Origin: an uncultured Mollicutes bacterium
GTDB taxonomy: Bacteria; Bacillota_I; Bacilli_A; RFN20; CAG-826
Assembly: GCA_945936135.1 (NCBI GenBank)
Contig: CAMESG010000004.1
Span: 50,520-114,519 of the forward strand
Reading direction: 5' to 3'
DNA: 64,000 nucleotides
The notes under the pieces were generated by a model that searched no databases, was not told the origin of the DNA, and saw nothing but the letters and a program-made list of their open reading frames with translations. Within the stretch, counting starts at the first letter, position 1, and each line of letters starts with the position of its first letter. Shown here piece by piece: positions 27,797 through 48,487 of the stretch. A program made the translations under genes and the position numbers.

Positions 27797-28822
27797 ATGA
27801 AAATCATCTTTGACATCCTCGGGGGAGACAACGCCCCTTTAGCGCCCTTAGAAGGCGCAATCAAGGCAATGAAGAGCCATCCGGATCTGACCTTGATCCT
27901 CGTCGGTCCAAGGAAAATCATCGAAGAAGGCCTCATCAAAGCGAAAATCGAACCGTCCCGTTATGAAATCATCGACGCGGAAGAAGCCGTCCTTAATACC
28001 GATCATCCCGCCGATTTCTTGCGCACAAAGCCTAATTGCTCGATGGCGCAAGCCTTTCAGACGTTGAAGAATCGTGGCGACGTCGATGCCTTCCTTAGCG
28101 CGGGGCCCACGGGCGCCTTGCTTAGTGGCTGCATCTTCAAAGCAGGCCGCATCAAAGGAGTCAAGCGCCCCTGCCTTATCACGACGCTTCCTAGCAAAAC
28201 CGGACAACTCGTCCGCATCGCAGATGTTGGGGCCAACATGGACTGCAAAAGCGAATATCTCATGCAATTCGCCAAGATGTCGAACGCTTATTTACAAACG
28301 ACGGGCATTGCTTCTCCGCGCATCGGCCTTCTCTCCGTCGGCATGGAAGAAGGAAAGGGAAACGAATTGACCCGCGAGGTTTATGGCCTATTGAAAGAGG
28401 ATCCGACCTTGAACTTCATCGGCAACATCGAAGCGGATAAAGTCCTCGATGGCATCTGCGACATCGTGATCTCGGACGGCTTCTCCGGGAACGTGTTTGT
28501 GAAATCCCTTGAAGGCGCCGCTTATTACGTCAGCGATCTCTTCAAAGACGCGGTTCTAGGCAAGTGGTGGCGGGCCATCGGGACGATCTTCCAAGCCCAT
28601 GCCTTGATGAACGTCAAGAAACCCTTCAAGCTCGCGAATGATGCAATCGCCCCGCTTCTAGGATGTTCTCGCCTCGTCGTGAAGTGCCACGGGAAATCAA
28701 AAGCGTCCAACTTCGAAGGCGCCTTGAACGAGACGATAAAACTCGTGAACGAAAAACTCATAGAGAACGTTCAAAACGCGATCAACGAATCCTTGTTGGA
28801 AGCAACACCTGCCGCTGAATAA
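27797..28822 (+). CDS. plsX: phosphate acyltransferase PlsX
   Basis: 341 aa; N-terminal KIIFDILGGDNAP and overall PlsX pattern. Confidence 0.9.
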   Translation: MKIIFDILGGDNAPLAPLEGAIKAMKSHPDLTLILVGPRKIIEEGLIKAKIEPSRYEIIDAEEAVLNTDHPADFLRTKPNCSMAQAFQTLKNRGDVDAFLSAGPTGALLSGCIFKAGRIKGVKRPCLITTLPSKTGQLVRIADVGANMDCKSEYLMQFAKMSNAYLQTTGIASPRIGLLSVGMEEGKGNELTREVYGLLKEDPTLNFIGNIEADKVLDGICDIVISDGFSGNVFVKSLEGAAYYVSDLFKDAVLGKWWRAIGTIFQAHALMNVKKPFKLANDAIAPLLGCSRLVVKCHGKSKASNFEGALNETIKLVNEKLIENVQNAINESLLEATPAAE

Positions 28823-28828
28823 AAATCG

Positions 28829-28854
28829 CGGGCTCCGATTTGGAGCCCGTTTTT
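28829..28854. terminator. bidirectional rho-independent terminator
   Basis: Perfect 8-bp stem CGGGCTCC-gattt-GGAGCCCG flanked by an A-run and a T-run. Confidence 0.6.
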
Positions 28855-29450
28855 CATTCCTTTTCTTCAACCGGAATGCCTTTTTTCTTCTTGACGTAAT
28901 GGACGATCTCTTTAAGGCCAGGGAAGATCAAGCCCGTGGTCAAGAGTTCGAAGAAGAGCAAGATCACGTGCGTGGAAGCGTGATGCTCGGACGGATTGAT
29001 AATCAAGAGAATGGAAAGAGTAATACCGACCAAGGATTCCGCGATCGAGAGGAAAACAGGTTCCTTATGGAAGATTTCGATCACGCTTTCTTCGAGTTCA
29101 AGGGATTCGCGAAGCATCGACCAAACCGCCCAAACCACGCAGACGGAGGTATATTCAACGGAGCCGGATTCCCCCAAATCTCCAAAGCAAAGAACAACGA
29201 TGCCAAGCAAGATCTCCAAGAGGCCCCAAAAGAAACGATTGTTCTTTTTGAAGCTCTTCTTAAGAACCAAATGAAGGACACAGGCCTCGACGCCATAAAC
29301 GACCATTAAGGATCCGACGAGGTAGTTCAAGCTATGAACAAACTGTTCGCGGAACACCAAAACGAGGATCGCGGCGATCGTCCAAAGGACCGCTTTGACG
29401 GGTTTCCATATCTTCATTACCATATTTTTGCTTATCCTGCTTTCTAACAA
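28854..29450 (-). CDS. small polytopic membrane protein
   Basis: 198 aa hydrophobic ORF immediately downstream of the hydrogenase-like gene. Confidence 0.45.
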   Translation of the reverse strand: MLESRISKNMVMKIWKPVKAVLWTIAAILVLVFREQFVHSLNYLVGSLMVVYGVEACVLHLVLKKSFKKNNRFFWGLLEILLGIVVLCFGDLGESGSVEYTSVCVVWAVWSMLRESLELEESVIEIFHKEPVFLSIAESLVGITLSILLIINPSEHHASTHVILLFFELLTTGLIFPGLKEIVHYVKKKKGIPVEEKE

Positions 29451-29480
29451 CCGCGCAAATTCGGCTTATCTCTTCCTATT

Positions 29481-30935
29481 CTACTCTTCTTTGCCAGCAA
29501 TGCTAGGATCCGCCATCAAGTAGTCGACTGCCGATTGCAAGGTCTTCTCCTTGCTCGATTTTGCATACATATCGACTTCCGCGGCATCGCGCGTCGCATG
29601 GGTCAAAGCCGCCGGGCCGCCGATGCAACCACCCGGGCAAGCCATGCCTTCGATGAAGTTTCCCTGCAAGCGGTTGCTGCGCGCTTGGTTCAAGGCCATC
29701 TTGCATTGATCCAAACCCGCGGCTTTCACAGGCTTCACTTCAAAGGTGGACCCTTGTTCCTTCAAGGCTTGCGCGACCGCTTCGCTCACGCCACCAGAGC
29801 GGGCAAAGATACGCCCGAAGTAAGAGGCGTTATCCAAGGGCGATTCTTCCAAAGTTGTTAAATCGATCTTCTTCGCATCGAAAAGAACCATGAGTTCTTC
29901 GAAAGTGATCACGCAATCGATATAGGGGGCGACTTCTTTTTCCATCGCTTCCATCTTTTTGGCAATGCAGGGCCCAACGAAGACGACCTTCGCATTCGGA
30001 TCCGTGGATTTGATGTACCGTCCAATCGCCGCCATCGGGGAATAATTCGAGGAGATCTTATCCTTCAAGGTCGGATAGGAGATCTTGACGTAACGGACGA
30101 AAGCCGGGCAGCAAGAAGAGGTCAAGAAACCTTTGGAAGAGAGTTCTTTCGCCTCGTTCATGGCGACCAAATCGGCGCCGACTGCCGCTTCGACAACGTG
30201 GGTGAAACCAAGTTTTTTGCAGCCCGTGATCACCTGGCCAAGCTTCGCAAAATCAAATTGGCTGGAGATCGAAGGCGCCGCGACCAAGTAGACATTCCTG
30301 GAAGGATCCGCTTCTTTTTCCTTTAAGAAATCGATGCAGCGCGTGATGAAGCTCTTGTCCATGATCGCGCCGAAGGGGCAAGCGTAGGAACATTGCCCGC
30401 AACGGGTGCACTTCTCTTCATCAATTTCCGAGATCCCATCTTCGCGAGCGTGGATCGCATTGACCTTGCAAGAGACCTCGCAAGGACGACGGCGATTGGC
30501 GATCGCGCCAAAAGGACAAGCCGCGGCGCATAGGCCGCAATTGACGCAAAGGTTCTTATCAATACGGGCGTGAAGGTCCGGTCCAAAGGAAATCGCGTTG
30601 CGGTGGCAGGCTTGCTCGCAGCGGTGCGCGATGCACCCGCGGCAAAGATCCGTGACTTCAACGCCGGAGAAAGGGCAAGAATCGCAGGCGGGCTCGATGA
30701 CTTCCAACAAATTGGGGTTCTCGGGATCCCCGCCCAAGGCAAGCTCGATCCGTTCCCGAACGATCTCGCGCTCCTTGTAAATGCAGCAGCGCATCGTGGA
30801 TTTTGGGCCAGGCGAGATGATCTTTGGGATCTTGCGTTTCTTTTGATCCAAGGTGCCTTCCCAATAATCTGTCGCGACTTCGAGCAAGACGCGATATTTC
30901 AAATGTTGCACATAGGTGTCGAATCTTTTGTCCAT
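29481..30935 (-). CDS. [FeFe]-hydrogenase-like protein with an N-terminal ferredoxin-like 4Fe-4S domain (HfsD-like)
   Basis: Two CxxCxxCxxxCP ferredoxin motifs; H-cluster-like motifs TSSCCPAFV, GPCIAKKME, EGMACPGGCIGG. Confidence 0.8.
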   Translation of the reverse strand: MDKRFDTYVQHLKYRVLLEVATDYWEGTLDQKKRKIPKIISPGPKSTMRCCIYKEREIVRERIELALGGDPENPNLLEVIEPACDSCPFSGVEVTDLCRGCIAHRCEQACHRNAISFGPDLHARIDKNLCVNCGLCAAACPFGAIANRRRPCEVSCKVNAIHAREDGISEIDEEKCTRCGQCSYACPFGAIMDKSFITRCIDFLKEKEADPSRNVYLVAAPSISSQFDFAKLGQVITGCKKLGFTHVVEAAVGADLVAMNEAKELSSKGFLTSSCCPAFVRYVKISYPTLKDKISSNYSPMAAIGRYIKSTDPNAKVVFVGPCIAKKMEAMEKEVAPYIDCVITFEELMVLFDAKKIDLTTLEESPLDNASYFGRIFARSGGVSEAVAQALKEQGSTFEVKPVKAAGLDQCKMALNQARSNRLQGNFIEGMACPGGCIGGPAALTHATRDAAEVDMYAKSSKEKTLQSAVDYLMADPSIAGKEE

Positions 30936-30944
30936 AAGTTTTCC

Positions 30945-32126
30945 TCAATAATACGAAACCGTGACGTTCTTCCCCATGGAACGGAGTTCATCCGCCAAGG
31001 AGTGAATGATCAACATCTTCATTTTGATGTCGATGCCCATGCCCTGCTCTTGATGGGAGGGATTCACCGCGCAGCCGACGGAGAAGAAGATATCCGTGGC
31101 TTCTTCGAAAAGCTTCCTCGCAAGCAGACTCGCGCCATCTTGACGGAAGCTCCATTCGAAGTAGAACTTGTTTTGTTTTTGGTAATCTTTGGCGAGTTCC
31201 AAGACCTTGTTCAAGGTGATTATCCCCTCGGTCACGAGGTCGACCCCTTCAATGTAACTGATCGGAGGAATCGTGGAATCTTCGAAATCCAGACTTCCTT
31301 GCACGGGCTCATTGAGGTAGTCCGCGGCGATCCTCGCCGTCGTGCCTCCGCAGATCACGTGAGGTCCTTCTTTTTTGAAGAATTCATCGAGCCTCAAAAT
31401 GTCGTCTTCTTTTCTCGTCGCTGGGCCAACCATCAAATTCAAAGGGCTTCTCGACCTTCGCTTGATGGCGAGGCACGTCGTATCGTCCCCAGGGTTTCGG
31501 TTATAAAGAAGATCGCATTGATCGACGAGATAGGTCGCGAGATTCTTCGCGCTTAGCCCAGGGTGGCAAAGGGCTTCGAGATAGGCGATGATCTCTTCTC
31601 TCGTCCAGCCGAAGTTCAAGCTTTCCCCAATGCCCGCGTGGATTGCACCGTCGGAGAAAATCGCCATCACATCCCCAACCTCAAAGGCAAAGGAAGCATA
31701 ATAGATTTTCTTGCCTTCGATCTCCCTCATCTGGTAATCGAGTTCTTCGTTAACACCGTTTCGCAAAAACACCGGCGTTGGGTTATCGAAGTTATAAACG
31801 GTCGCTTGGAAATCCTTGTCCACCCGAACGATCGTGAAGGTACTATAAGCCACGTTCCCGCGGTCTTTGGCAATCGGCAAGGTCTTGACCAAGGCGTCAA
31901 CCCCTTCTTCGATGGAAAGCCCTCTTTCGATCATCTTGCAAAGCATGGTCGAAGCAAGGGTCGAAAGGATGCTCGCGACAACGCCAGAACCAATCCCATC
32001 CGCCAAAACAAAGGTATAGGCGCCTTCAGAATCCGCGCTAATCTCCACGTGATCGCCGCAAAGCTCCTCTCCTTTGTGATTAATCGAGAGGTAGCCGTAT
32101 TCCATCATGGAATCGATCTCGCCCAT
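30945..32126 (-). CDS. PP2C-type (SpoIIE-like) serine phosphatase (HfsC-like)
   Basis: 393 aa; metal-binding ADGIGSG motif; PP2C-like architecture. Confidence 0.75.
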   Translation of the reverse strand: MGEIDSMMEYGYLSINHKGEELCGDHVEISADSEGAYTFVLADGIGSGVVASILSTLASTMLCKMIERGLSIEEGVDALVKTLPIAKDRGNVAYSTFTIVRVDKDFQATVYNFDNPTPVFLRNGVNEELDYQMREIEGKKIYYASFAFEVGDVMAIFSDGAIHAGIGESLNFGWTREEIIAYLEALCHPGLSAKNLATYLVDQCDLLYNRNPGDDTTCLAIKRRSRSPLNLMVGPATRKEDDILRLDEFFKKEGPHVICGGTTARIAADYLNEPVQGSLDFEDSTIPPISYIEGVDLVTEGIITLNKVLELAKDYQKQNKFYFEWSFRQDGASLLARKLFEEATDIFFSVGCAVNPSHQEQGMGIDIKMKMLIIHSLADELRSMGKNVTVSYY

Positions 32127-32131
32127 ATTCT

Positions 32132-33826
32132 TTACTTCTTTTCACCCGTTAAAACGCGGGAAAGGTTCGTCAAGGCGACCTTCGTCTCCGCGACGCTTTG
32201 ACCCAAGAGCTCCGCGATTTCTTGAACCGCACGCATGTTCTTTTCAATGACTTCTTTGGTGACGCGATTCGCCTCGGCGGCGGTTTCTCGTTTCTCTTTC
32301 ATTTCCAAGACCGTGTGGGTGCGGTCGCGGAAGGTTCCGATCACGATGTGATACCGCTCGTCGTGGCGGACGGTCGCTTCCAAATAGAGATTCCTATCTT
32401 CCCAGGCGATATGACGGCTCACGCTATTTCTGCCTTCCAAAGCATCGAGGAACAAGGTCGGATCGATAAAGTCGGAAACGATGTTCCCAATCATGGCCTC
32501 GGGCGTTGATCCCGCCATCGAGGCAAGGACGGGGTTCGCGAGTTGGATGCGAAGGTTCTCGTCGATGACGATGATCCCATTCGGCGAAGATTCAACGACG
32601 TCGTTGCTGAAACTCATCGCCTTGTCCATAAGATAGGGGAGGCACATCGAAACCTGCGCCTTGCCTTTTAACACAGCTTTGGCCTTCTCTCGGCAGGTCA
32701 AATACCCGCAGGAACCGCAATTGAGTTCATCCTTCTTGGTATATTTGCCCATCAAATTCAAAATTCGTTGGATGTCTTCTTTCTTGAAGTCTGGTTCATC
32801 CGTAGGGGTGGATTTCAATTCTTTGGAGAGCTCCTTTAAGGAATAGGGAACCGTCTCAAAGTCTTCGTTGCCCGTCAAGGCACGGACGCGAAGCGAACTC
32901 TTCAAGGCGTTTCGCTTATGCAAAACAGGCCCGTTGACGCAGCTGCCTTCGCAGGCGCTTACTTCCAAAAACAAGTGATGGACATCGCCCGAGGCGACGT
33001 CGCTTAACGCGGACATCACTTCTTCCATCCCCGAGACGGAAACGTATTGATAGGATGGATTCCGTTTTTCCATCGTTTTCAAGATGCCGCCATCGGTTGG
33101 GAAGATGCGCGCCCTTGATTTCTCCAAATAAGCGCTCTTCTCTTCTTTCTCGATAACGATGCCTTTGGATTCAAGCATTCGATTCAGTTCAAGGAAGGTC
33201 AAAGCCAAATCAACGTCATCGTCTTGATCCGCTTCGCCTTTCTTGGCGATGCAAGGCCCGATGAAGATCACCTTGGCGTCTTCGTGGCGGCGTTTGATGT
33301 CTTTCGCGTGTGCGATCATTGGAGAAACGACCGGTGCCAAGCAATGGGCGATGTTCGGATAGAATCTTCTTACGAGGTCATTGACCGCCGGGCAGCAGGT
33401 CGAAAGGATCACTTCCCCTTGGGCTTTGTCAACCAATTCATCGTAGGCTTTCTTGACGATCGTCGCGCCGATCGCGGTTTCTTCAACGCCGGCGAAACCA
33501 AGTTGCTTCAAAGCTTTTTCAAACGTCGCTAAACTCGCATTTGGGTAAGCGCCTAAGAAGCTAGGCGCCAACGAGGCATAGCAATTGCCTTTTTCCAAGA
33601 GCTCAAAGGCGCGTTCCGTATCGTCGCGGATCACCTTGCACCCTTGGGGGCAAACCGTGTAGCAGCGTCCGCAAAGGACGCACTCTTCTTGGATGATGCT
33701 CGCTTGGTTATCGTGAAACGAGATCGACTTTGTCGGGCAAGAGCGAATGCATTTATAGCAAGAACGGCAATCGTTTTTTATCGAGATAAGAGGACGGTCC
33801 ATAAGTATGGCTCCTTTCGTGCGCAC
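32132..33826 (-). CDS. sensory-type [FeFe]-hydrogenase with a C-terminal PAS domain (HydS/HfsB-like)
   Basis: N-terminal Fe-S Cys clusters; H-cluster-like motifs STCCPAV, GPCIAKKGE, EVSACEGSCVNGP (degenerate versus catalytic HydA); extra CGSCGYLTC cluster; C-terminal PAS-like region. Confidence 0.8.
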   Translation of the reverse strand: MRTKGAILMDRPLISIKNDCRSCYKCIRSCPTKSISFHDNQASIIQEECVLCGRCYTVCPQGCKVIRDDTERAFELLEKGNCYASLAPSFLGAYPNASLATFEKALKQLGFAGVEETAIGATIVKKAYDELVDKAQGEVILSTCCPAVNDLVRRFYPNIAHCLAPVVSPMIAHAKDIKRRHEDAKVIFIGPCIAKKGEADQDDDVDLALTFLELNRMLESKGIVIEKEEKSAYLEKSRARIFPTDGGILKTMEKRNPSYQYVSVSGMEEVMSALSDVASGDVHHLFLEVSACEGSCVNGPVLHKRNALKSSLRVRALTGNEDFETVPYSLKELSKELKSTPTDEPDFKKEDIQRILNLMGKYTKKDELNCGSCGYLTCREKAKAVLKGKAQVSMCLPYLMDKAMSFSNDVVESSPNGIIVIDENLRIQLANPVLASMAGSTPEAMIGNIVSDFIDPTLFLDALEGRNSVSRHIAWEDRNLYLEATVRHDERYHIVIGTFRDRTHTVLEMKEKRETAAEANRVTKEVIEKNMRAVQEIAELLGQSVAETKVALTNLSRVLTGEKK

Positions 33827-33869
33827 GCACGGGAAGAAAGCGGAAGCCCATTGGCCTCCGCGAAAAAGA

Positions 33870-34121
33870 TTAACCCAAGCGAGGAAGGATGACTTCGTCC
33901 ACGAAGGAAGGGATCTTTTCGGGGGTTAAGCCCGAGTAGACGTCCTCGCCAACGCGAACCGAAACCCCTTCGGATCCGCAATGGTTCAAACAGAAAGCGG
34001 CTTTGAGATTCACCTTGGAAAGCAAATCCCGTTTGGAAAGTTCTTCTTTCATGGCGTCAATCACGGGCTTCGAGCCTTTCAAATGGCAAGAGCTTCCGAC
34101 GCAGATGGATACATCGATCAT
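33870..34121 (-). CDS. thioredoxin-like [2Fe-2S] ferredoxin (HydC/NuoE-like small subunit)
   Basis: 83 aa with four Cys (CVGSSCH...CLNHC); ATG 3 nt after the adhE stop. Confidence 0.65.
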   Translation of the reverse strand: MIDVSICVGSSCHLKGSKPVIDAMKEELSKRDLLSKVNLKAAFCLNHCGSEGVSVRVGEDVYSGLTPEKIPSFVDEVILPRLG

Positions 34122-34124
34122 ATA

Positions 34125-36767
34125 TCAATTCCCTTTGTAAGCCGCCTTCAAGATCTCGACCATGTCGGGGACGAGCGGCTCGCGAGGGTTCGCTGGTGTG
34201 CACTGGTCCTCGTAGGCCAGGTAAGCGATCTCCTCTAATTTGCTATTATACAGGGCTTCGTCGGGGACGAGGGAGGAGAAATTCATGTCGATTCCGATGT
34301 CTTTGCCCAAATCAAGAACGGCTTTGGCAAGGACATCCTTCGCCTCTTCCTTGTTCTTGCAAGGCAAATCGAGGATGCGGCAAACCTTGTAATACTTCTC
34401 ATCGCAGCAATAGGTCTCGTACTTCGGCCACAAGGCGAGCTTTGTCGGCTGGGTGCCGTTATAGCGGATCACATGAGGAAGCAAAATCGCGCAGGTCTGT
34501 CCGTGGATCGTATGGAATTCGCCGCCCATCTTGTGGGCCAAGGAGTGCGTGATGCCAAGGAAGGCATTCGCGAAAGCCATCCCGGCGATCGTCGCTGCGT
34601 TATGCATTTTCTCACGCGCCTCGGGGTCGTTCTTCCCATCGTGGACGCAACGGGGAAGGTACTTGAAAACCAATTCGATCGCGTGAAGCGCCAAGCCATC
34701 GGTGTAATCGCTCGCCATGACCGAGGTATAGGATTCGATCGCATGGGTCAAGACGTCCATGCCCGTGTAGGCAGTCGAATCCGCAGGAATGTTCGTCGTG
34801 AACTCCGGATCGACGATCGCGATCGAAGGCGTCAACGAGTAATCGGTCAAGGGATATTTCTTGTTGTTTTCCTTATCCGAGATGACGGCGAATGGCGTCA
34901 CTTCCGAGCCCGTTCCCGAGGTCGTCGGGATGCAAATCAATTTGGACTTGCGGCCCAATTCCGGAAATTTGAAGGCCCTTTTGCGGATATCCATGAATTT
35001 CTGCTTGATGTCATCGAAGTTGACTTCGGGGTGTTCATAGAAGATCCACATGCCTTTTGCGGCATCCATCGCGGAGCCTCCGCCAAGGGCGATGATCGTG
35101 TCGGGAGAGAATTCCCTCATCAAAGCGACGCCGCGAAGAACGGTCTTGATATCGGGATCTGGTTCGACCTCGGCGAAAAGCTGATACGTGACCGGGTTCC
35201 GGCGATGATGGAGTTCATCGGTGATCTTGCGCAAGAAGCCGAGCTGGACCATCGAACGGTCGGTGACGATGAAGACTTTCGAAATGTCTTTGGCAGACAT
35301 CAAATATTGAATCGAGTTGCGTTCGAAATAGATCTTTTGCGGAACCTTGAACCATTGCATGGTGTTTCTCCTTTTGCCGACGCGTTTGATGTTGAGCAAG
35401 TTCACGGCGCTGACGTTGCCGCCCACCGAGTTGCCGCCATAAGATCCGCAACCCAACGTAAGGGAAGGAATCAACGAGTTATAAACGTTCCCGATGCCGC
35501 CGAAGGTCGACGGGGAATTCCAAAGGATGCGGATCGCTTTGACCTTGTCGCCGAAGGCATCCGCCATCTTTTGGTCGTGGCAATGGATGGCCGCCGAATG
35601 GCCTAGACCTCCGAATTCAAGCATCTTCTCGCATTGCTCAAAGCCTTCTTTTGCATCCTTCACTTTATATACAGCGAGAATCGGGGAAAGCTTCTCGCGG
35701 CTCAAAGGCTCGATCGAACCAACCTCGGTGCAGTTTACCGCGATAATTTGTGTGCCCTCCGGAACGTCGAAGCCCGCGTTCTTCGCGATGTTTTTCGCGG
35801 ACATCCCGGCGACTTCGCCGCGGAGTTTTGCCTCGTCTTCTTTCCCACACCCTTTGGTCACGCCAAACATATAGGCTTCAAGCTTTGTCTTTTCTTCTTC
35901 GTTTGCGAAGTAGACGCGGTACTTCTTGAAAAGATCGATCGTTTGATCATAAACGGAATCGTCGATGAACACGGCGGATTCCGAGGCGCAGATCATGCCG
36001 TTATCAAAGGACTTCGACAAAACGACATCGTTGACCGCGCGAGTCAAATCCGCGGTTTCGTTGATGTAACAAGGAACGTTTCCAGCGCCGACGCCAAGGG
36101 CAGGCTTGCCTGAGGTATAGGCAGCTTTCACCATGCCAGGTCCGCCCGTAGCGAGGATCGTCGCGACGCCAGGATGCTTCATCAAGGCGCTTGTCGCGTC
36201 AATCGAAGGATGCTCGATCCATTGAATACAGTTTTTCGGAGCACCGGCTTTCACCGCGGCATCCAACATCACCTTGGCCGCTGCGACCGAGCACTTCTGC
36301 GCGCCGGGGTGAAACCCAAAGATAATCGGATTTCTCGTCTTGATGGCAATCAAGCTTTTGAAGATTACGGTCGAAGTTGGGTTTGTGACCGGAGTAACGC
36401 CGCAGATGACGCCAACGGGTTCCGCGATTTCCGTGATGCCCGTAACCGGATCTTCCGAGATCACGCCCACGGTCTTGAGGTGACGCATGTTGTTCACGAC
36501 GTATTCGCAAGCGAAGAGATTCTTCGTCGCCTTGTCTTCGAAAACGCCACGGCCAGTTTCCTCAATCGCCATGCGCGCAAGGATACCATGGTTGTCCAAT
36601 CCGGCGACCGACATCTTCGCGACCATGTTATCCACTTGATCCTGGGTCGCCGTGGAGAATTCCTCCAAGGCGATCAAGGCCTTTTTCACCAACGAATCGA
36701 CTTCTTTTTCGGCCGCGGCTTTTTGAGCCGCCTTTTCCTCTTCGGTTAAGATTTTCTTCTCTGCCAT
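34125..36767 (-). CDS. adhE: bifunctional acetaldehyde-CoA / alcohol dehydrogenase
   Basis: 880 aa; N-terminal aldehyde dehydrogenase domain plus C-terminal iron-type ADH domain (GGGSAMDAAK). Confidence 0.95.
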   Translation of the reverse strand: MAEKKILTEEEKAAQKAAAEKEVDSLVKKALIALEEFSTATQDQVDNMVAKMSVAGLDNHGILARMAIEETGRGVFEDKATKNLFACEYVVNNMRHLKTVGVISEDPVTGITEIAEPVGVICGVTPVTNPTSTVIFKSLIAIKTRNPIIFGFHPGAQKCSVAAAKVMLDAAVKAGAPKNCIQWIEHPSIDATSALMKHPGVATILATGGPGMVKAAYTSGKPALGVGAGNVPCYINETADLTRAVNDVVLSKSFDNGMICASESAVFIDDSVYDQTIDLFKKYRVYFANEEEKTKLEAYMFGVTKGCGKEDEAKLRGEVAGMSAKNIAKNAGFDVPEGTQIIAVNCTEVGSIEPLSREKLSPILAVYKVKDAKEGFEQCEKMLEFGGLGHSAAIHCHDQKMADAFGDKVKAIRILWNSPSTFGGIGNVYNSLIPSLTLGCGSYGGNSVGGNVSAVNLLNIKRVGKRRNTMQWFKVPQKIYFERNSIQYLMSAKDISKVFIVTDRSMVQLGFLRKITDELHHRRNPVTYQLFAEVEPDPDIKTVLRGVALMREFSPDTIIALGGGSAMDAAKGMWIFYEHPEVNFDDIKQKFMDIRKRAFKFPELGRKSKLICIPTTSGTGSEVTPFAVISDKENNKKYPLTDYSLTPSIAIVDPEFTTNIPADSTAYTGMDVLTHAIESYTSVMASDYTDGLALHAIELVFKYLPRCVHDGKNDPEAREKMHNAATIAGMAFANAFLGITHSLAHKMGGEFHTIHGQTCAILLPHVIRYNGTQPTKLALWPKYETYCCDEKYYKVCRILDLPCKNKEEAKDVLAKAVLDLGKDIGIDMNFSSLVPDEALYNSKLEEIAYLAYEDQCTPANPREPLVPDMVEILKAAYKGN

Positions 36768-36829
36768 CGTTACGCTCCTATCGTTCCATTTTCAAACCCC
36801 GTTCTTTCTTCGGGTCATCTCCATAATAT

Positions 36830-37498
36830 TCAAGAGGTAACCCAAGTCAAACTTTTAAGTAAATATTTACCGATATAAGGGATTGAAAACGCTTCCAAAC
36901 TTTTCCCGATCTTGCTCCGTGTGTTTATTTGGAACAAGAAGGATGAAGTTTGGAAGAAAAGATTAGGCGTTTTTGTCCATTTCGTAGGCGCCTTACAAAG
37001 TTTCGGATCCTTTGATCTCACCTTGTTGATATACGCCGTTGCCGATAAGGTCCCTTTGACCACGCCGCCTTGCACGCAATCGACATAGCCTTGCATGTCG
37101 GCCAAGGTGCGATTCGCCGATTCAAGATCTTCATCCGCCATCGTGACGATGAAGTAGAATTCCTTGTTCTTCACTTCAAGCCAACGGGCAACAGTGCGAT
37201 CGATGACCGCCTTGAGTTGAGCGGTGATCGAATAGAAAAAGACGGCGCTAGATGGCACGATGACATCCGCATTGATCATCTTTTGAAGGACGTCCGCCAT
37301 CGCATCTTTTTGCACGCATTCCCTATGGTGTTCGCGGCAGTAATAGCAAGCTAGGCACGGGGCGATCTTCTTGCTCGCGACATGGATCTTTTCAACATCG
37401 TTTTCAGCCTCTTTCGCACCGCGGGTGAACTCATCGCAAATCAAGTCCGAGTTTCCTTTGATTCTCGGAGATCCCGAGAGGACTAAAATCTTTTTCAT
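36830..37498 (-). CDS. flavodoxin-like NAD(P)H-dependent FMN reductase / iron-sulfur flavoprotein family
   Basis: N-terminal KILVLSGSPRIKGNS; CLACYYC cysteine cluster; the C-terminal ~60 aa are atypical and may be an extension. Confidence 0.6.
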   Translation of the reverse strand: MKKILVLSGSPRIKGNSDLICDEFTRGAKEAENDVEKIHVASKKIAPCLACYYCREHHRECVQKDAMADVLQKMINADVIVPSSAVFFYSITAQLKAVIDRTVARWLEVKNKEFYFIVTMADEDLESANRTLADMQGYVDCVQGGVVKGTLSATAYINKVRSKDPKLCKAPTKWTKTPNLFFQTSSFLFQINTRSKIGKSLEAFSIPYIGKYLLKSLTWVTS

Positions 37499-37709
37499 AT
37501 ACGTTTCCTTTCATTATTGTTTGCCTATGCCAATGGGGGTACTGATTCGTTGCAAGGCTTCCGACGAAATACGCATTGATCATATGGATATTGAAAGCCC
37601 TTGTGTTAAGGAAGAATTTGCCGGATTCCCGCCATTCCGAAGTTCATGAGCAAAGCCCATAATTAATCCTAGCATTCCCCGAGGGTTTCATGTATATTAA
37701 TGAACGCGC

Positions 37710-37802
37710 GGAGACATACCCAAGAGGCCGAAGGGGACGGTTTGCTAAACCGTTAGATCGGGAATCCCTGGTGCGAGGGTTCGAATCCCTCTGTCTCCGC
37801 CA
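37710..37802 (+). tRNA. tRNA-Ser (anticodon GCU)
   Basis: 93 nt; acceptor stem GGAGACA/TGTCTCC; anticodon loop TTGCTAA; long variable arm; T-arm GGTTCGAATCC; encoded CCA. Confidence 0.9.
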
Positions 37803-38033
37803 TTACGTCAATCCGCCTCAATGTTTATTGGGGCTTTTTCTTTCACGCCCGGAGCGATGGCTTAAGGCCAACGTGAAGATCGACGAGATTTCGGACTTCC
37901 CGAAACACCGTTCTCTTTTAAATCAATAATTTTTCGTAATATTTGAGGTGCATTTCGTTAGAATTCAGGAAGGCGGAGAGAAATATGGATCTAAAGAGTT
38001 GCGAATACGCCCCCGGGCGCATTGATTTTTTAG

Positions 38034-38519
38034 GCCTACGCAAAGTTCAAGGAGAATCTTGGCGATGGCTTATTCTATCAGGCGGAGAATCTAGAAGAAA
38101 TCGACGTCCCCTCTAGCGTTATCATGATCGAGCCGGAAGCATTCGCAGGTTGCGTGAATCTAAGGCGTTGCGAACTGTGTTCCTGCAACATTCCCAAAAT
38201 CTCCCCGAACACCTTCGAAGACTGCCTTTCTTTGGAGGAACTCCGCCTTCCCGAGGGAACTCTCGTCGTTGGCTCCGATGCGTTTAAAAAGTGTTCTTCT
38301 TTGAAGGCCCTTTCCATTCCCGATTCGGTTCGGGTGATTAACAAAGGCGCGTTCGAAGGATGCGTTTCCTTAGCTACAATTGACCTAAGCGACTCCAAAT
38401 GGGAATATAAGGGCCCTTTTGGTCCGATCTCTTTCACCGGCTATTACTCAACTAGCCCCGCTCAAGCCGCTGCGGATTTGGTCTCGAAATATAGAGGCGT
38501 CTGCAAGAAATTCAAGTGA
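38034..38519 (+). pseudogene. 5'-truncated remnant of a BspA-type leucine-rich-repeat (LRR_5) surface protein gene
   Basis: Reading frame open from the stop at 38031-33 with no start codon until 38124; repeats of the form F.GC..L..I.IP.SV..I...AF..C..L. Confidence 0.5.
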
Positions 38520-38791
38520 ACCGATGAAGAGTTCGAGGCTTTAAGAAATCAAGATAGTGCGAAAAACAGAATGCTCTTGAACATCTATAACAGCAGTCTT
38601 AAAAAAGAATAAAAAGGGCGCCTTCTCCCTGTCCTAAACCTAGAATCATCTTCTGCAGATGTTTTGCCTTCGAGGTTATCGGTTAACTCGCTTATCGAAA
38701 TAACGAAGAGACAATCGAAAAGGGGGAGGTTTCTTTGTTTAACAATGCATCTCCCCTCTTATAGCCTTGTAAGAAATCAAACCAATGAAAA

Positions 38792-38808
38792 TACACCAAT
38801 AGTGTATA
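38792..38808. promoter_or_regulatory. operator-like palindrome TACAC-CAATA-GTGTA about 100 bp upstream of the HTH-protein gene
   Basis: Seen in sequence inside an AT-rich spacer; the downstream gene encodes an N-terminal HTH. Confidence 0.3.
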
Positions 38809-38912
38809 TTTTTTCTCAATAAATAATTTGTATGCTTTTCATATATGCAAAGGCAAGATAGCTTTTACCCATGCCTTCTTGATAATCTTGTTTTGCGAAA
38901 GGAATTTGAGTC

Positions 38913-40145
38913 ATGCTTAAATTAAAAACCAATGAAGAAATAGGTGCATATCTAAAGAAACTAATTCTAAAAAGATATAAAAATTGCAGGCAATTTTGCC
39001 TTGCCTATGCCGCGTTGAGTAATGTTCCGCCGGATCAACGAGACGGCGAGGTAAAACGACTCGCGAACAGAATGTCGCAGATCTCGAAGGGTAAGAAGGG
39101 CATTCAAATCTACGATTTCCCCATCTTCTCGGAACTTTTGGATGCATCTTGCGAGCAAATTCTTTCTGCAGGGGAACTTTGTTTTCCCCGCATGAATCGA
39201 AAAACCAACTACAGCATTGCCTCCTCAAACAACGAATCCGATTGGATCGAATATCTAGAACGAAAGGATTGCGCGGCTTCTTATCTCGACGAATTCGGCA
39301 AATCACTAATCGATTATGCAATCGAATTCAAAAACTATGCTTTGATTAAGTTTCTGACAGAAAAAGGATATATCACCTTCGTTGAAAATGACGCGGAGTA
39401 TCCAGACTTGAACTTCGGGGCGACCACTTCGCTGCAAACAAGGACTGAAGTCAAAACGTTAAAGGACGAACTTTTCGAAAACAAAACGCTTCGGACCAGC
39501 ATCATAACTCTAGCTCTGGAAAAGAACGACTGCAGCGTTTTGGAAAAAATGAAAGCAAGGGAATTCCCTCCTCAATCGTTCATGAATGGAAACACCAATC
39601 TAACGACCAAGATCGCTGATTACTACGATGAGCAATATCTTGAGACCATTTTGCACTCGAACGCCAACGTGATCCGTTATTTCTGCGAAGAGTATAAAGT
39701 GAAGCAATATTGGCAAGGCGATGAAGTTGTATGGATGTTTCCGTTCATGGGAACGCTTATCGCCAAAGCCGTGAAAGAGAACCACGAATATGCGGTCCCT
39801 TTGTTGGATGCGGCAATTAAGCACAACGAGGATTTTTTCAGAAAATTGAAAACGGCGGTACTTCACACAGCCCAACGCATTAAGAAAAACGAAAGACCGG
39901 GAACTGAATTCAAAGAAGTGATCATGGGCGTTCTTCATTACTATCGAGTTTCAAAGGAAAACGACTTTGTTTGCTTCTGGTATCCAGGGTTCGAGGAAAC
40001 CTCCAAAGCGATGACAAACGTCGTTATCGCGAAGGCTCAATCGGAAAACCCTGAAATCCAAAGGAAAATCGACAGTCTAAACGATTTGTATTCTCAATCA
40101 ATAAACCTTGAGGATTATTTGTTCAAAAAGACAACGGCTCGTTGA
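38913..40145 (+). CDS. protein with an N-terminal XRE-like HTH, ankyrin-like repeats and a C-terminal domain of unknown function
   Basis: AGGAA RBS; HTH-like NEEIGAYLKKLILKRYKNCRQFCLAYAAL; ankyrin-like GKSLIDYAIEFKNYALIKFLTEKG and TSIITLALEKNDCSVLEKM; GC below the window average. Confidence 0.6.
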   Translation: MLKLKTNEEIGAYLKKLILKRYKNCRQFCLAYAALSNVPPDQRDGEVKRLANRMSQISKGKKGIQIYDFPIFSELLDASCEQILSAGELCFPRMNRKTNYSIASSNNESDWIEYLERKDCAASYLDEFGKSLIDYAIEFKNYALIKFLTEKGYITFVENDAEYPDLNFGATTSLQTRTEVKTLKDELFENKTLRTSIITLALEKNDCSVLEKMKAREFPPQSFMNGNTNLTTKIADYYDEQYLETILHSNANVIRYFCEEYKVKQYWQGDEVVWMFPFMGTLIAKAVKENHEYAVPLLDAAIKHNEDFFRKLKTAVLHTAQRIKKNERPGTEFKEVIMGVLHYYRVSKENDFVCFWYPGFEETSKAMTNVVIAKAQSENPEIQRKIDSLNDLYSQSINLEDYLFKKTTAR

Positions 40146-40160
40146 AATACTAAGGAAGGA

Positions 40161-40481
40161 ATGAAGATGTCAAAATTCAAAATAGTCAAAGTCTGGGATG
40201 AGTTATATCCCAATGAAACCGAACTCTACGATTACGCAGGAAGGAAAATGAAAAAATCCGCTTGTGGTAATCTTCAAAGCTCATATTGTCCAACAATCGA
40301 TCACATCCGCCCTCTTTCCCAAGGCGGGAAAGATATTCTGGGAAATATTGTGATTTGCCACCGTGAAACCAACGCGGAAAAAGCGGATTCATTCCCTCAC
40401 TGGAAAGCAAATGGGAAAAGATTCAAGGCCATCCGCATCAAAGGGACCAAAGGCAAATACAAGATTGTCGAGGATGAATAA
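40161..40481 (+). CDS. small HNH endonuclease
   Basis: 106 aa; CGNLQSSYC...IDHIRPLSQGGKD...GNIVICHRETNAEK (Cys pair, DH, N and H of the HNH fold); 15 nt downstream of the preceding gene. Confidence 0.7.
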   Translation: MKMSKFKIVKVWDELYPNETELYDYAGRKMKKSACGNLQSSYCPTIDHIRPLSQGGKDILGNIVICHRETNAEKADSFPHWKANGKRFKAIRIKGTKGKYKIVEDE

Positions 40482-40530
40482 ACCGAAAAAACGCCCTTTC
40501 AAGATTTGACGGATTTCAATTCGTAAAAAA

Positions 40531-40564
40531 AGCCCTTCGAATCAATCGAATGATCCAAAGGGCT
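40531..40564 (-). terminator. rho-independent terminator of the minus-strand surface-protein operon
   Basis: Minus-strand RNA stem AGCCCUU...AAGGGCU followed by U7. Confidence 0.45.
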
Positions 40565-40575
40565 TTCGAAGGCGA

Positions 40576-42255
40576 TTACTTACGCGTCAAGCGGACGTTG
40601 TCGAGATAAGCGATGGTTTCGCCCACGCTTCCGCCCGGGAAGAATTGCAAGACATCGATTTGGCCAGCGAGTTCAAAATCCATATTGAAATGGTGCACAA
40701 CGCCCACTTCGAGATTTGGGAAAGCTGGATCTTTGAATCCTCCGTTCCAGAAGAACTTCAAATACATCGTGTCGGTAAACTTTTCAATGAGGTAATCGAA
40801 CTCCAAAGTATAGGTGCCCGCTTGCATAAGAGCTTTGTCAAAGGGAACCAAATAGACGCCGGCATAGCTCCCGTTCGAAACGATTTTGACAGAGCTTCCT
40901 TCGATTCCGTCCGAAACGACGCTGGAAGATGGAGCAGGCGCAGCATCGAGACGGAAGACTTCGTTCGCAGGATCCCCGAAGGTTTCTAACATCGTGTCGC
41001 CAGCATTTGACATGGAATACGGTTTCTCATTCGTTTCCTGCAAGACGTGAGAAACAGTGAAATTATCGATGGAAAGACTCGTTTTCCCTTGAGCCCCTCC
41101 CGGGAAGATTTGGAAAAGATCAGAAGCTTCGGTGGCCGTATACATCCAAGAGAAATGCTGCACGCTTCCAACCAAAGACGGTCCCCCGAACTGCGTGAAG
41201 TGATTCGTGGCGCCCGGGACTTGGAAATATAGCGTATCCACGAAATCATGAATCAAATAATCAAAGGAAATCGCATAGGTTGTCCCGACTTCCATCGCAA
41301 CGAATTGCTTTAGATAAACGCAATTAAAGGCGCCCGAGGATTCAACATAAAGATGGCCGGTGCCATCGATCGCTGTTCCTGCCTCGGTGGAGACTTTTGA
41401 ATTGGGGGTTTGAACATTGTCGTATGCGATCATCGGATCGTGTCGGAAATCGTCGAAAGTCGCGGTTTTGCTCTCGCCAACCTTCAAGGCTGTGGCGTCG
41501 GCAGGCTTAACGACATGATAAGTCAATTCCGTCGTCGCTCCAAAGAAGTTAATGGCTGCGCTCTTCGCGCCCGGAGACGAGGTATCCACGCCTTTCATCA
41601 ACGAAGCATCAAGGGCGAGATCCGCCGAGGTGCCATCTTTATAATTTACGCGCAAAACCGCGCCTTCCGTATTCAATTTCGCACCAACAAGGGTATCGTC
41701 AAGCGTTCCTTGGACAGCGATCGAATCGACGAGATTCGCAATGCAGGTGTATTGGATGGAATAGGCGCTGACCTTTGCTTCCGCACCTTCGTTGACGAGC
41801 ACGAGATAGGCATAAGGTAATGAAGCTTCATAGCTTCCGCTCCCGTTGAACGTGTGGAGCTTTTGATCCAACGAAGTTCCGTCCTTCGAACCGTAGAGGG
41901 CGAGTTTCGCTTCTCCATCGGCTTCGACGTTCACGCGACGGATGCCCGTGACTTCGCCAAGGTTCGCGATTCTGCCTTCGCCGTTGCCCTTCAACACCGC
42001 AACGCCGTCAGACGATGCTTTCGCTTGAGTGAAAGCGAAGGAGGTGTAACGGGAAGCCGCGGTAACGCTGTCTTGATAATCCGTATCAAGAATCGGGCGG
42101 TTCGTTTGGTCAAACGAGATTTCGTAGTTACCCGTCACGCCATAGAAATTTTGAACCGGTGCTTTCCAGTTCGGGCTCATAGCCATGGCAACGCCGCCAA
42201 TCATCATCGTGGCAAGAGCGCCTGCGCCAAGAACCAATTTTGTCTTCTTGTTCAT
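40576..42255 (-). CDS. secreted or surface protein with two copies of a ~100-aa carbohydrate-binding-module-like domain
   Basis: Signal peptide; repeated motif GTGHLYVESSGAF...IFPGGAQG...; paralogous to the next gene. Confidence 0.6.
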   Translation of the reverse strand: MNKKTKLVLGAGALATMMIGGVAMAMSPNWKAPVQNFYGVTGNYEISFDQTNRPILDTDYQDSVTAASRYTSFAFTQAKASSDGVAVLKGNGEGRIANLGEVTGIRRVNVEADGEAKLALYGSKDGTSLDQKLHTFNGSGSYEASLPYAYLVLVNEGAEAKVSAYSIQYTCIANLVDSIAVQGTLDDTLVGAKLNTEGAVLRVNYKDGTSADLALDASLMKGVDTSSPGAKSAAINFFGATTELTYHVVKPADATALKVGESKTATFDDFRHDPMIAYDNVQTPNSKVSTEAGTAIDGTGHLYVESSGAFNCVYLKQFVAMEVGTTYAISFDYLIHDFVDTLYFQVPGATNHFTQFGGPSLVGSVQHFSWMYTATEASDLFQIFPGGAQGKTSLSIDNFTVSHVLQETNEKPYSMSNAGDTMLETFGDPANEVFRLDAAPAPSSSVVSDGIEGSSVKIVSNGSYAGVYLVPFDKALMQAGTYTLEFDYLIEKFTDTMYLKFFWNGGFKDPAFPNLEVGVVHHFNMDFELAGQIDVLQFFPGGSVGETIAYLDNVRLTRK

Positions 42256-42291
42256 GTCATTTTTCCTTTCTTAAAGTTTATTTTTAGACGC

Positions 42292-44301
42292 TTAAGCAGA
42301 GCGTCGAATGACTAAATCGTCGAGGATGAAGCTCGTCGTCCCGCTCGCTCCTCCGGGGAAGATCTGGATCAAGCATCCCGCGGAGGTATTGAGGGTGAAT
42401 TCGTGATCAAAGGTTTTGACTTGTCCGATCTCGGAAGGTGAGCCAAATTGCTCGAAGACCGAAGGGGAACCGAAGAATTGGAAGTAGATCGTGTCAACGA
42501 AGGTCAAGACCTTGTAAGAGAAGGTCACGTGATAGGTCGCTCCCTTCACGTATTCGATCCCCTTATGGATCATGAGCGTTTTGTAGCTGCCCGCGGATTC
42601 AACGTAAAGGTAGCCCGTTCCGTTGATCCCGTCGTCTCCTTGCTTCACGCCGCTATTGGGCGTTTGGGCGTTATCGATCCCAAGTTTCATCGCATTCGGC
42701 GAATCGAAGGTTTCGTGGATTTCATCGCCCACTTCGAGCAAGACGTTCTTAATTTCCGCGGTCGTGCCTTCTTGGCGTTCGATCTTGAGGTTATCCAAGA
42801 CCATGTCGTAACCCGTTTGGGCCGGGAAGAGCATGAGTGCGTAATCATCAACCCCATCAAGGCGGAAAATGTATTCGAAGCGATAGTCTTCTCCAACCTT
42901 GACTTGGCTTAGGTCGATCGGCGAGAACTTGTCGTGGTTATACCCTCCATTCAAGGAACGAAGCTGGACATAGCAGGTCTCGCCCTTGCTGAAGAATCGA
43001 TAATCGAACGAAAGCTTGTAGATTCCATTCGAAGCGAAGCGGATGCCCGAGAAGTAAGTCGCGTTATAGGAACCGGGTGACTTCAAGCGGAGCGAAGAAG
43101 AGCCAGAGAGCACATCTTCCGCTTTCTGAGTGATGTAGGCTTCCGATCCTTGCTGCGGCGCGAAGTAGAGATCGCCACGCGCATCGCCTTGGGGTTCGAA
43201 GTCCTCGGTGAAGGATTCGCCATAATCAAGGGTGATTCTCCGACCCGTGTCGATGCCGATGCCGCCAATCGGATTGGAGGTATAGACGATCGTTGGAAGG
43301 CCGATCGCTTCTTCTCCTAGCGATTTGCTATACGCCGTGACGGAGATACCGACGTACCATCCGTTCAAGTCCTCGGTGATTTCCAAGGAATTGCTCGTTT
43401 CATTGAGGTGCGTTTGGTTCAAGCCATCTTTATCCAAAGCCGCGATCCAGGAATATTCGATGTGGTCGAGTTCATCCCCTTCCGCATCGTAATAGCCGTG
43501 TTCGAAGGAAAGCGTCTTGCCAACTTCCGCTTCACCCGTAAGGCGAAGGTTCGTCACGGTCGGGCGGGAGTTGTTGCGCGTGATCGAAATGTTGTCGATC
43601 GCCATGCTCGCGGCGCTCGTGCTCGGGAAGAGCATGATGCGGTAATCAGAGAAATTCGATAGGTTGATATCGAAAGTCTTATGCATCTTCGCCCCATTGC
43701 CACCATCGAATTGGGCAAAGACATCGCTCGCCGTGCCACCTGTTAAGGAACGGAACTGGAAGTAGAACGTCTGAGGGACATCGATGCAGCGGTAATCCAA
43801 CGAAATCGTGTAGCGTCCAGAGGCTGCGAAGTTCATGCCGCCGAAGGTCACCCCGGCGTAATTGCCTTCGCTATGGATGATCAACGTGTTGTTATCGATC
43901 CCGAATTCGTGATCATTCGCGACTTCGTAACTTGCACCGCTATCCGCGGAAACCGGGCAGATTTTCGTGTGAATTGCGTCCTTTTCGAAATCTTCGACGT
44001 AGGTTTCACCAGAGTTTAGAACCCTCTTCTTTTCCAAAAGAAGATCGTAGAGAGGATCATCCGGCGTACGATTCTCGTTCGTTCCTTCAAGCTTTGTTCC
44101 TTGACCATTCGGGTCGTTATTGAGGTCGCGGATGATCGAGGCTTCGTCAAGACTAGAAGAGGACGAAGAGGAACTCGCTTCTTGGCTCATCGAGCTAGAA
44201 GACGAGGAAGAAGATGAAGAGGGGGAGTCTTGGTCTTCTCCGCAGGAGCATAAAGCCAACGCGGAGAAGGCGAGAAGGAGGATGGGCTTAAGTTTATTCA
44301 T
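42292..44301 (-). CDS. surface lipoprotein with a poly-Ser linker and two to three copies of the same CBM-like domain
   Basis: Lipobox LALCSCG; S-rich linker; repeated GTGYLYVESAGSY...IFPGGASG motif. Confidence 0.6.
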   Translation of the reverse strand: MNKLKPILLLAFSALALCSCGEDQDSPSSSSSSSSSSMSQEASSSSSSSSLDEASIIRDLNNDPNGQGTKLEGTNENRTPDDPLYDLLLEKKRVLNSGETYVEDFEKDAIHTKICPVSADSGASYEVANDHEFGIDNNTLIIHSEGNYAGVTFGGMNFAASGRYTISLDYRCIDVPQTFYFQFRSLTGGTASDVFAQFDGGNGAKMHKTFDINLSNFSDYRIMLFPSTSAASMAIDNISITRNNSRPTVTNLRLTGEAEVGKTLSFEHGYYDAEGDELDHIEYSWIAALDKDGLNQTHLNETSNSLEITEDLNGWYVGISVTAYSKSLGEEAIGLPTIVYTSNPIGGIGIDTGRRITLDYGESFTEDFEPQGDARGDLYFAPQQGSEAYITQKAEDVLSGSSSLRLKSPGSYNATYFSGIRFASNGIYKLSFDYRFFSKGETCYVQLRSLNGGYNHDKFSPIDLSQVKVGEDYRFEYIFRLDGVDDYALMLFPAQTGYDMVLDNLKIERQEGTTAEIKNVLLEVGDEIHETFDSPNAMKLGIDNAQTPNSGVKQGDDGINGTGYLYVESAGSYKTLMIHKGIEYVKGATYHVTFSYKVLTFVDTIYFQFFGSPSVFEQFGSPSEIGQVKTFDHEFTLNTSAGCLIQIFPGGASGTTSFILDDLVIRRSA

Positions 44302-48483: not shown

Positions 48484-48487
48484 AGGT

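Follow-up and report, generated by a model that had tools for sequence, protein, structure and literature searches.

A putative high-hydrogen fermentation gene cluster of the Ruminococcus albus type, reduced in linked regulators, in an uncultured Mollicutes bacterium

In gut and rumen fermenters, the partial pressure of H2 decides whether ethanol or acetate plus H2 is formed. We analysed a 64,000-nucleotide (nt) stretch of DNA from an uncultured gut bacterium of the Mollicutes (contig CAMESG010000004.1, positions 50,520 to 114,519; referred to below as the window), which carries a gene for the ethanol-forming enzyme AdhE directly upstream of a hydrogenase-phosphatase module. A first-pass annotation, made from the sequence alone, had described five co-directional genes at this locus, and both their identities and their positions agree with the listing of open reading frames (ORFs) and with searches against Pfam and NCBIfam profiles. 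These five genes, a probable sixth and the site at which the unit is predicted to end are given below in the order of transcription (aa, amino acids).

34125-36767, minus strand: adhE, bifunctional acetaldehyde-CoA/alcohol dehydrogenase, 880 aa (Pfam Aldedh, Fe-ADH and ADH_Fe_C; NF010378)
33870-34121, minus strand: thioredoxin-like [2Fe-2S] ferredoxin (fdx), 83 aa, in the HfsA position (PF01257, E 4e-8)
32132-33802, minus strand: hydS/hfsB-type PAS-[FeFe]-hydrogenase, 556 aa, putative H2 sensor (Fer4, Fe_hyd_lg_C, PF04060 and PAS)
30945-32126, minus strand: hfsC-type PP2C/SpoIIE Ser/Thr phosphatase, 393 aa, with a conserved C-terminal alpha/beta domain
29481-30935, minus strand: hfsD/hydA2-type monomeric group B [FeFe]-hydrogenase, 484 aa, predicted to be of the catalytic type (Fe_hyd_lg_C and Fer4 domains; TIGR04105)
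28854-29417, minus strand: DUF308 membrane protein, co-directional, probable sixth gene of the unit (PF03729)
28828-28850, both strands: bidirectional intrinsic terminator in common with the convergent plsX (10-pair stem with 7 G-C pairs, T-runs on both strands)

AdhE scores 1373 bits against the NF010378 equivalog (cut-off 951), as befits a fusion of an aldehyde dehydrogenase with an iron-dependent alcohol dehydrogenase, and the ferredoxin has four Cys residues in the pattern C-x4-C...C-x3-C. The start of hydS is most likely the ATG at 33802 rather than the GTG at 33826: a ribosome-binding site (AAAGGAG) lies 8 nt upstream of this ATG, and the resulting 556-aa product is also called on six other contigs. 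With this start, the gaps between adhE, fdx, hydS, hfsC and hfsD are 3, 67, 5 and 9 nt, which replaces the range of 3-43 nt given earlier; the ATG of the ferredoxin gene does lie 3 nt past the adhE TGA, as had been noted, and the phosphatase gene starts 5 nt past the hydS stop. No terminator-like site was found between hfsD and the DUF308 gene, and the strong bidirectional terminator at 28828-28850 is the predicted end of the unit. The identical locus is present on at least 20 metagenome contigs. HfsC shares 99% identity with a protein from a metagenome-assembled genome named 'Candidatus Enteromonas sp.' at NCBI, and the closest species-level genome loci carry the label uncultured Bacilli.

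The same arrangement is known from Ruminococcus albus. A tblastn search of plasmids found, on plasmid pRUMAL01 of R. albus 7, the gene order rex, adhE (aad), phosphotransferase (kinase), fdx, fdx, hydS, SpoIIE phosphatase and a gene for a 478-aa hydrogenase (hydA2). In the window, the genes for AdhE, [2Fe-2S] ferredoxin, PAS-hydrogenase, PP2C phosphatase and group B-type hydrogenase follow one another in the same order and orientation, and the proteins are orthologous, with identities of 46% for AdhE, 42% for HydS, 49% for HfsC and 57% for HfsD/HydA2. According to the literature, the R. albus 7 cluster is co-transcribed and regulated by H2 (Zheng et al. 2014, as cited in PMC5707799 and PMC11837493), with HydS proposed as the H2 sensor (Zheng et al. 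2014, J Bacteriol, as cited in PMC5707799, PMC10838669 and PMC11837493). Greening et al. (2019, PMC6776011) found expression of this 'putative eight-gene cluster' to fall 111-fold when Wolinella removes H2, and the sensory hydrogenase is described there as co-transcribed with adhE and the hydrogenase gene. The layout is thus already known from R. albus 7 and the window locus adds no new principle; the idea of a compact H2- or redox-sensing circuit linked to adhE, put forward in the first-pass annotation, is a reasonable interpretation but not a new one.

There are several differences from the R. albus cluster. The window has a single ferredoxin gene instead of two, a 67-nt structured gap between fdx and hydS, and the extra DUF308 gene, and its genes lie in a chromosome-like context in an uncultured Bacilli lineage, whereas the R. 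albus cluster is on a megaplasmid. The window also lacks the rex gene, the APH-type Ser/Thr kinase gene and the upstream LysR gene of the R. albus cluster. Searches by tblastn, which covered all 64 kb, detected no rex homologue, even at E=10 with the Rex proteins of the closest relatives as queries, no match to the R. albus kinase, and no LysR homologue. On this evidence the window locus appears to be a new, stripped-down member of the R. albus-type cluster.

For the spread of the arrangement, one genome per species was scanned with an HfsC alignment, which gave at least 590 confirmed relatives; 80 loci were fetched, and linkage to adhE was counted among the 54 that have at least 4.5 kb upstream of hydS. 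In 28 of the 54 species-level loci, adhE lies directly upstream of the module on the same strand; these include both loci labelled Bacilli and loci labelled Clostridia. Because the same order recurs in so many loci, the arrangement appears to be beyond chance, and the physical linkage of adhE to the module, as first described, is real and conserved. Two layouts can be distinguished. The Clostridia or R. albus type reads (LysR)-rex-adhE-kinase-fdx-fdx-hydS-hfsC-hfsD, and the Bacilli type rex-adhE-fdx-hydS-hfsC-hfsD. Relatives of the latter type (L009-L011, L013-L016 and L018) resemble the window in having no kinase gene (the R. albus kinase is absent from all of them), a single ferredoxin gene and an AdhE that is 73-80% identical to that of the window, but they start with rex, whereas in the window adhE directly follows the promoter and operator. 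By gene content, then, the window appears to be a Bacilli-type cluster minus rex. In nearly all related loci, one or two ferredoxin genes lie directly upstream of hydS, and hydS and hfsC abut or overlap. In many species rex accompanies the cluster. In seven Clostridia-type loci (L019, L022, L023, L028, L053, L072 and L079), about 1 kb of extra DNA, presumably one gene, lies between hfsC and hfsD.

A sister Enteromonas species, represented by two independent assemblies (L089 and L090), has an HfsC 74% identical to that of the window and the same neighbourhood (proS, plsX and ABC transporter genes). It carries fdx-hydS-hfsC-hfsD, and the DUF308 gene is also found downstream of the module in L089. 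Of adhE only a remnant is present (L089 5593-5999; L090 1242-1648), a frameshifted stretch of the last ~136 codons (residues 745-880) with 72% identity that directly adjoins fdx. It thus appears that adhE was deleted in this species while the hydrogenase module persisted, so that the linkage is probably ancestral but dispensable. A gene of the histidine phosphatase family (His_Phos_1) follows hfsD in L089 (10656-11390).

The two hydrogenases were compared with fragments of CpI obtained by a PDB search, to which 80 HydS and 69 HfsD orthologues were aligned; CpI numbering is used throughout. HydS of the window keeps every ligand of the H-cluster, including the Cys residues equivalent to C300 and C355 and both Cys in the L3 motif E-V-S-A-C-E-G-S-C, as well as K358 and E361, and this complete ligand set with K358 and E361 is strictly conserved across the 80 orthologues. 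Other positions are as follows.

CpI E279: Lys in the window HydS; Glu in 0 of 80 orthologues
CpI S319: Ala in the window HydS; Ala in 78 of 80 orthologues
CpI M353: Gly in the window HydS; Gly in 80 of 80 orthologues
CpI M497: Ser in the window HydS; Ser in the commonest L3 motifs of the orthologues
CpI E282: Asp in the window HydS; Glu in 59 and Asp in 21 of 80 orthologues
CpI C299: Cys kept in the window HydS; Cys in 79 of 80 orthologues (phosphatase-linked clade)

Apart from C299, this residue pattern matches that described for sensory HydS enzymes (PMC10055695), and R. albus HydS has the same sensory-type substitutions. HydS also has the architecture of group C3, that is, an H-domain with all Cys ligands of the H-cluster followed by a C-terminal PAS domain (at about residues 400-480), and a Ser/Thr phosphatase gene is adjacent to hydS in 80 of 80 genome loci; in HydDB, group C3 comprises 'phosphatase-linked (putative)' sensors and group B putative ferredoxin-coupled H2 evolvers (PMC5037454). 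By the second-sphere changes E279K, S319A, M353G and M497S and the PAS domain, the PAS-hydrogenase is tentatively assigned to the sensory type, in agreement with its first annotation. The alignment of motifs and proton-relay Cys that the annotation had called for brought out these sensory substitutions and, at the same time, a proton-relay Cys (C299) that is kept, although only ~17% of sensory sequences have Cys at this position (PMC10055695). Compared by description, the Thermotoga maritima HydS, a sensory [FeFe]-hydrogenase that has been characterised biochemically (PMC10055695), has the same combination of H-domain and PAS domain, a small residue (Gly) at M353, Ser at M497 and a disrupted canonical proton pathway, but differs from the window HydS in having Ala at the C299 position.

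The last of the five genes had been annotated as hydrogenase-like and the module as regulatory, which does not fully fit what the gene encodes. HfsD of the window keeps C299, E279, E282, S319, M497, K358 and E361, with M353G as a substitution; C299, E279 and S319 are kept in 69 of 69 HfsD orthologues and E282 in 65 of 69. It scores 545.3 bits over its full length against TIGR04105, 'monomeric [FeFe] hydrogenase, group B1' (cut-off 450), and is, as noted above, 57% identical to R. albus HydA2. Because the proton-pathway residues are kept, and given the TIGR04105 score and the identity to HydA2, HfsD is predicted to be a catalytic-type group B enzyme, the orthologue of HydA2/HfsD, and not a regulatory part of the module. 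The phosphatase HfsC has a PP2C fold with conserved metal-binding aspartates; these catalytic Asp residues are invariant among its relatives, and it is predicted to be a catalytically competent PP2C.

The order of small Fe-S protein, PAS-hydrogenase, PP2C phosphatase and hydrogenase is also that of hfsABCD in Thermoanaerobacterium saccharolyticum (Shaw et al. 2009; Eminoglu et al. 2017, PMC5707799), an operon that likewise has no kinase gene; the likeness is one of domain order. The equivalence of HfsB with HydS and of HfsD with HydA2 is taken from PMC11837493 and PMC13277313. That of HfsA with the thioredoxin-like ferredoxin is doubtful, as HfsA of this organism aligns poorly with known proteins (PMC11837493). 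In Thermoanaerobacterium adhE lies elsewhere on the chromosome, whereas in the window it is the first gene of the cluster. Deletions of hfsA or hfsB in T. saccharolyticum raised the adhE transcript 2-3 fold and the ethanol yield, and deletions of hfsC or hfsD did not (PMC5707799).

Upstream of adhE we identified a promoter-like and an operator-like site, the latter of which recurs in relatives.

36823-36850, minus strand: sigma-70-like promoter TTGACT-16-TATTAT, the best match in the region (10 of 12), by consensus match only
36855-36874, minus strand: palindrome resembling an operator, ATCGGTAAATATTTACTTAA, 4 nt ahead of the -35 hexamer
Conserved promoter-proximal element (A/T)TCGGTAAA-N2-TTTAC(C/T)...: window 36855-36874, minus strand; L009 4582-4601; L013 4745-4764; L014 4717-4736; L011 784-803

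In L003, the 21-kb counterpart of this locus in the same species, ATCGGTAAATATTTACTTAA is the sole match with at most two mismatches to CGGTAAA-N2-TTTACCG. The same holds for L009, L011, L013 and L014, in each of which the sole match precedes the start of rex, with which the cluster opens, by 39-101 nt, so that the element occurs once per ~20-kb locus in five Bacilli-type species; in L009 the layout of operator, -35 and -10 ahead of rex is the same as that ahead of adhE in the window. The window has thus kept the palindrome, here upstream of adhE, despite having lost the rex gene that comes after it in the relatives. Strains of the same species are ~99% identical in the region upstream of adhE and hence uninformative. 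The geometry of the palindrome, ATCGGTAAA-N2-TTTACCGA, recalls the 7-4-7 arrangement of the Rex operator TTGTGAA-W4-TTCACAA (PMC2883068). The canonical Rex box TTGTKAA-N4-TTMACAA, however, has no match with up to three mismatches near adhE in the window, nor one with up to two mismatches upstream of rex or adhE in 13 loci, R. albus included, and canonical Rex control is therefore not supported. The palindrome may be bound by a diverged Rex, by a LysR protein or by another factor. A scan of positions 28000-39500 against Rfam (E<=1) gave a tRNA-Ser only and no riboswitch or known leader.

An analogous element, ATCGATA-N6/7-TATCGAT, is found at Clostridia-type loci, often in two or three overlapping copies with a 15-nt phase (for example, L001 4265-4285, and in L022, L024, L025, L042, L043, L051, L087 and others). 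It occurs in 30 of 72 loci, and the 54 hits in 27.7 kb within the 350 nt preceding the clusters, as against 64 in 1.29 Mb, amount to a 39-fold enrichment; at no more than one mismatch, nearly all hits lie just upstream of rex, adhE or hydS clusters. In at least 24 loci, a co-directional LysR-family gene (L001 3258-4190 and homologues; 40-69% identical to R. albus RUMAL_RS17345 at the protein level) is found directly upstream of Clostridia-type clusters, and the palindrome arrays sit between this gene and rex or adhE. With the LysR gene, the R. albus cluster may have a ninth member that has not been reported. The LysR gene is absent from Bacilli-type loci as well as from the window.

Within the cluster, the gap between fdx and hydS contains two structured elements, which the first-pass annotation had overlooked.

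33840-33861, minus strand: terminator-like hairpin GCGGAGGCC-AATG-GGCTTCCGC followed by TTTCTT (9 pairs, 7 of them G-C)
33811-33838, minus strand: predicted second hairpin, in which the U-tract pairs with the hydS Shine-Dalgarno sequence (AGGAG, 33811-33815), in both the minimum free energy and the centroid structures

The 70-nt intergenic sequence folds into these two hairpins with -28.6 kcal/mol (z -3.75), and the hairpin at 33840-33861 is the second-best terminator-like site within 12 kb. At the same position, L009/L010, L011 and L089 have hairpins of differing sequence, so that the feature is conserved across four species; an analogue of the hairpin that pairs with the Shine-Dalgarno sequence is predicted in L089 and L011. 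The hairpin is absent where the gap is 0-40 nt, as in R. albus; in nine of the 14 relatives examined at this junction, the two genes are this close and no strong hairpin is present. From these features we infer that the genes from adhE to hfsD probably form an attenuated operon, with abundant adhE-fdx and less sensor, phosphatase and hydrogenase. The single operon annotated earlier is uncertain. Of the internal promoter and terminator that the annotation had named as evidence against it, the conserved hairpin supplies a candidate terminator; however, a crude consensus scan, a weak negative, gave no promoter-like site between adhE and hydS, and most of the gaps are short. The proposed translational coupling of the sensor module to adhE could apply only to the adhE-ferredoxin junction, whose 3-nt spacing no other junction shares.

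The strength and conservation of this hairpin also allow for two units side by side, adhE-fdx ending at 33840-33861 and hydS-hfsC-hfsD-DUF308 having a promoter of its own that was not recognised, in which case the linkage would reflect co-regulation or shared ancestry. The stability of the fold, its rank among terminator-like sites, its recurrence in four species and the persistence of the module beside a ruined adhE in the sister species are all in keeping with such a division. Yet the hairpin is separated from the ribosome-binding site of hydS by only ~30 nt of G+C-rich sequence, neither there nor within fdx is there a match to -35 and -10 hexamers, the U-tract is weak (UUUCUUCC), most of the relatives examined have fdx and hydS close together with no strong hairpin, and the R. 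albus cluster is reported to be a single unit (PMC6776011). We therefore regard two separate units as rather unlikely.

We favour, with moderate confidence, the interpretation that the locus and the adhE-hydS-phosphatase-hydA2 cluster of R. albus 7 are orthologous 'high-hydrogen fermentation' gene clusters, that HydS senses H2 and acts via the PP2C phosphatase on AdhE and HfsD, and that the hairpin attenuates expression. A single promoter region would drive adhE and the small [2Fe-2S] ferredoxin gene, with the co-directional genes of the module downstream. AdhE, which would pass electrons from NADH to ethanol, and HfsD, which would pass them from reduced ferredoxin to H2, would be the pair of electron sinks required on accumulation of H2. 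HydS would bind H2 at an H-cluster tuned for sensing, not for turnover, and its signal would pass via the PAS domain to the phosphatase encoded 5 nt downstream, which would dephosphorylate some target and so alter the expression or activity of AdhE and HfsD. The pair of hairpins would serve as a partial terminator and an element masking the Shine-Dalgarno sequence, such that adhE-fdx is made in large amounts, and read-through yields the sensor, phosphatase and hydrogenase at a lower level. Because no rex, kinase or LysR regulator is linked to the cluster, the output step would have to use factors encoded elsewhere or consist of post-translational action on the co-encoded enzymes.

Two other explanations of the locus were weighed. 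One is that the ferredoxin, HydS, HfsC and HfsD make up a single multi-subunit catalytic "Hfs" hydrogenase that does no H2 sensing, with AdhE as a co-expressed second redox sink. The first description of the hfsABCD genes had them encode the hydrogenase mainly responsible for H2 evolution in T. saccharolyticum (summarised in PMC11837493), activity of HfsABC in the absence of HfsD is still considered (PMC13277313), and HydS keeps the C299 Cys along with all ligands. On the other hand, virtually no HydS orthologue retains E279 or S319, a simple hydrogenase would have no role for a PAS domain or for a PP2C with intact catalytic residues, and deletion of hfsB raised hydrogenase activity, a phenotype unlike that of deleting the whole operon and one that points to regulation (PMC5707799). 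Such a complex seems to us improbable. We give equally little credence to a variant of the H2-sensing interpretation in which all else is the same but HydS senses the cellular redox state (the ferredoxin or NADH pool) through its extra Fe-S clusters, namely the N-terminal Fer4 domain and the four-Cys motif of PF04060, and its partner [2Fe-2S] ferredoxin. These accessory domains, the one or two dedicated ferredoxins encoded just upstream, the possible response of the PAS domain to redox potential (PMC11837493) and the frequent company of rex, itself encoding a redox sensor, would suit such a function; the strict conservation of the H-cluster ligands, K358 and E361 in 80 orthologues would be needless for it, and the R. 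albus cluster responds to the removal of H2 (PMC6776011).

Several observations weigh against the H2-sensing interpretation itself. We know of no organism studied in which the substrate of the phosphatase has been identified, and to our knowledge H2 sensing by the phosphatase-linked class of hydrogenases has never been shown in vivo. In its C299 Cys, HydS is unlike most sensory sequences, and it may for this reason have some catalytic activity. The window lacks the kinase of the R. albus model, in 26 of the 54 loci adhE is not found in the position directly upstream of the module, and, since the sister species lost adhE and kept fdx-hydS-hfsC-hfsD, the module does not appear to need adhE in cis. 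Finally, the hairpin between fdx and hydS could be a full terminator.

A more speculative form of the H2-sensing interpretation would make the window a minimal self-contained circuit, in which HydS and the phosphatase act post-translationally on AdhE or on the group B hydrogenase, and transcription is set only by the promoter-proximal palindrome (ATCGGTAAA-N2-TTTAC..., Rex-box-like in its 7-4-7 geometry) and by the internal attenuator, which would fix the ratio of AdhE to sensor; the ATCGATA-N6/7-TATCGAT arrays of Clostridia-type loci would then be the long-sought DNA target of the output regulator. We consider this version doubtful. Phosphatase-linked sensory hydrogenases are the leading candidate for the means by which cells sense H2. 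The window locus and its relatives extend the linkage of adhE, sensor and hydrogenase from loci labelled Clostridia to loci labelled Bacilli, and suggest that it exists in a minimal form lacking the kinase and Rex of R. albus and can be broken by deletion of adhE. As handles on the output step, the comparison offers 80 genome loci, conserved operator motifs, a neighbouring LysR gene and the hairpin inside the cluster.

A few other features of the window deserve mention. A solitary GltD/NfnB-like protein of 404 aa (Fer4_20 and Pyr_redox_2) is encoded at 9846-11060 on the minus strand with no NfnA-like gene adjacent; it could bear on the NADPH/ferredoxin balance, and NfnAB has a role in ethanol production by Thermoanaerobacterium. 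Upstream of adhE, an FMN_red/flavodoxin-like gene (36830-37498, minus strand) has an apparently degraded 3' end, with GEIKGSETL*..AYEMDKNA* in the alternative frame, and is called differently in different strains, as 159 aa, as split products of 83 and 156 aa, or as 222 aa. Beyond it, a segment of ~17.8 kb (37803-55690) is missing from strains L003 and L004 of the same species, which are 99% identical to the window on both sides. In L004 its left boundary is the exact 3' end of the tRNA-Ser(GCT) gene (37710-37802), and in L003 homology continues to 37851. The segment, which contains large ORFs for Ser-rich lipoprotein-like products (40576-47002) and a run of six ORFs of ~280-440 aa each (48488-54316), resembles a strain-specific island inserted at a tRNA gene.

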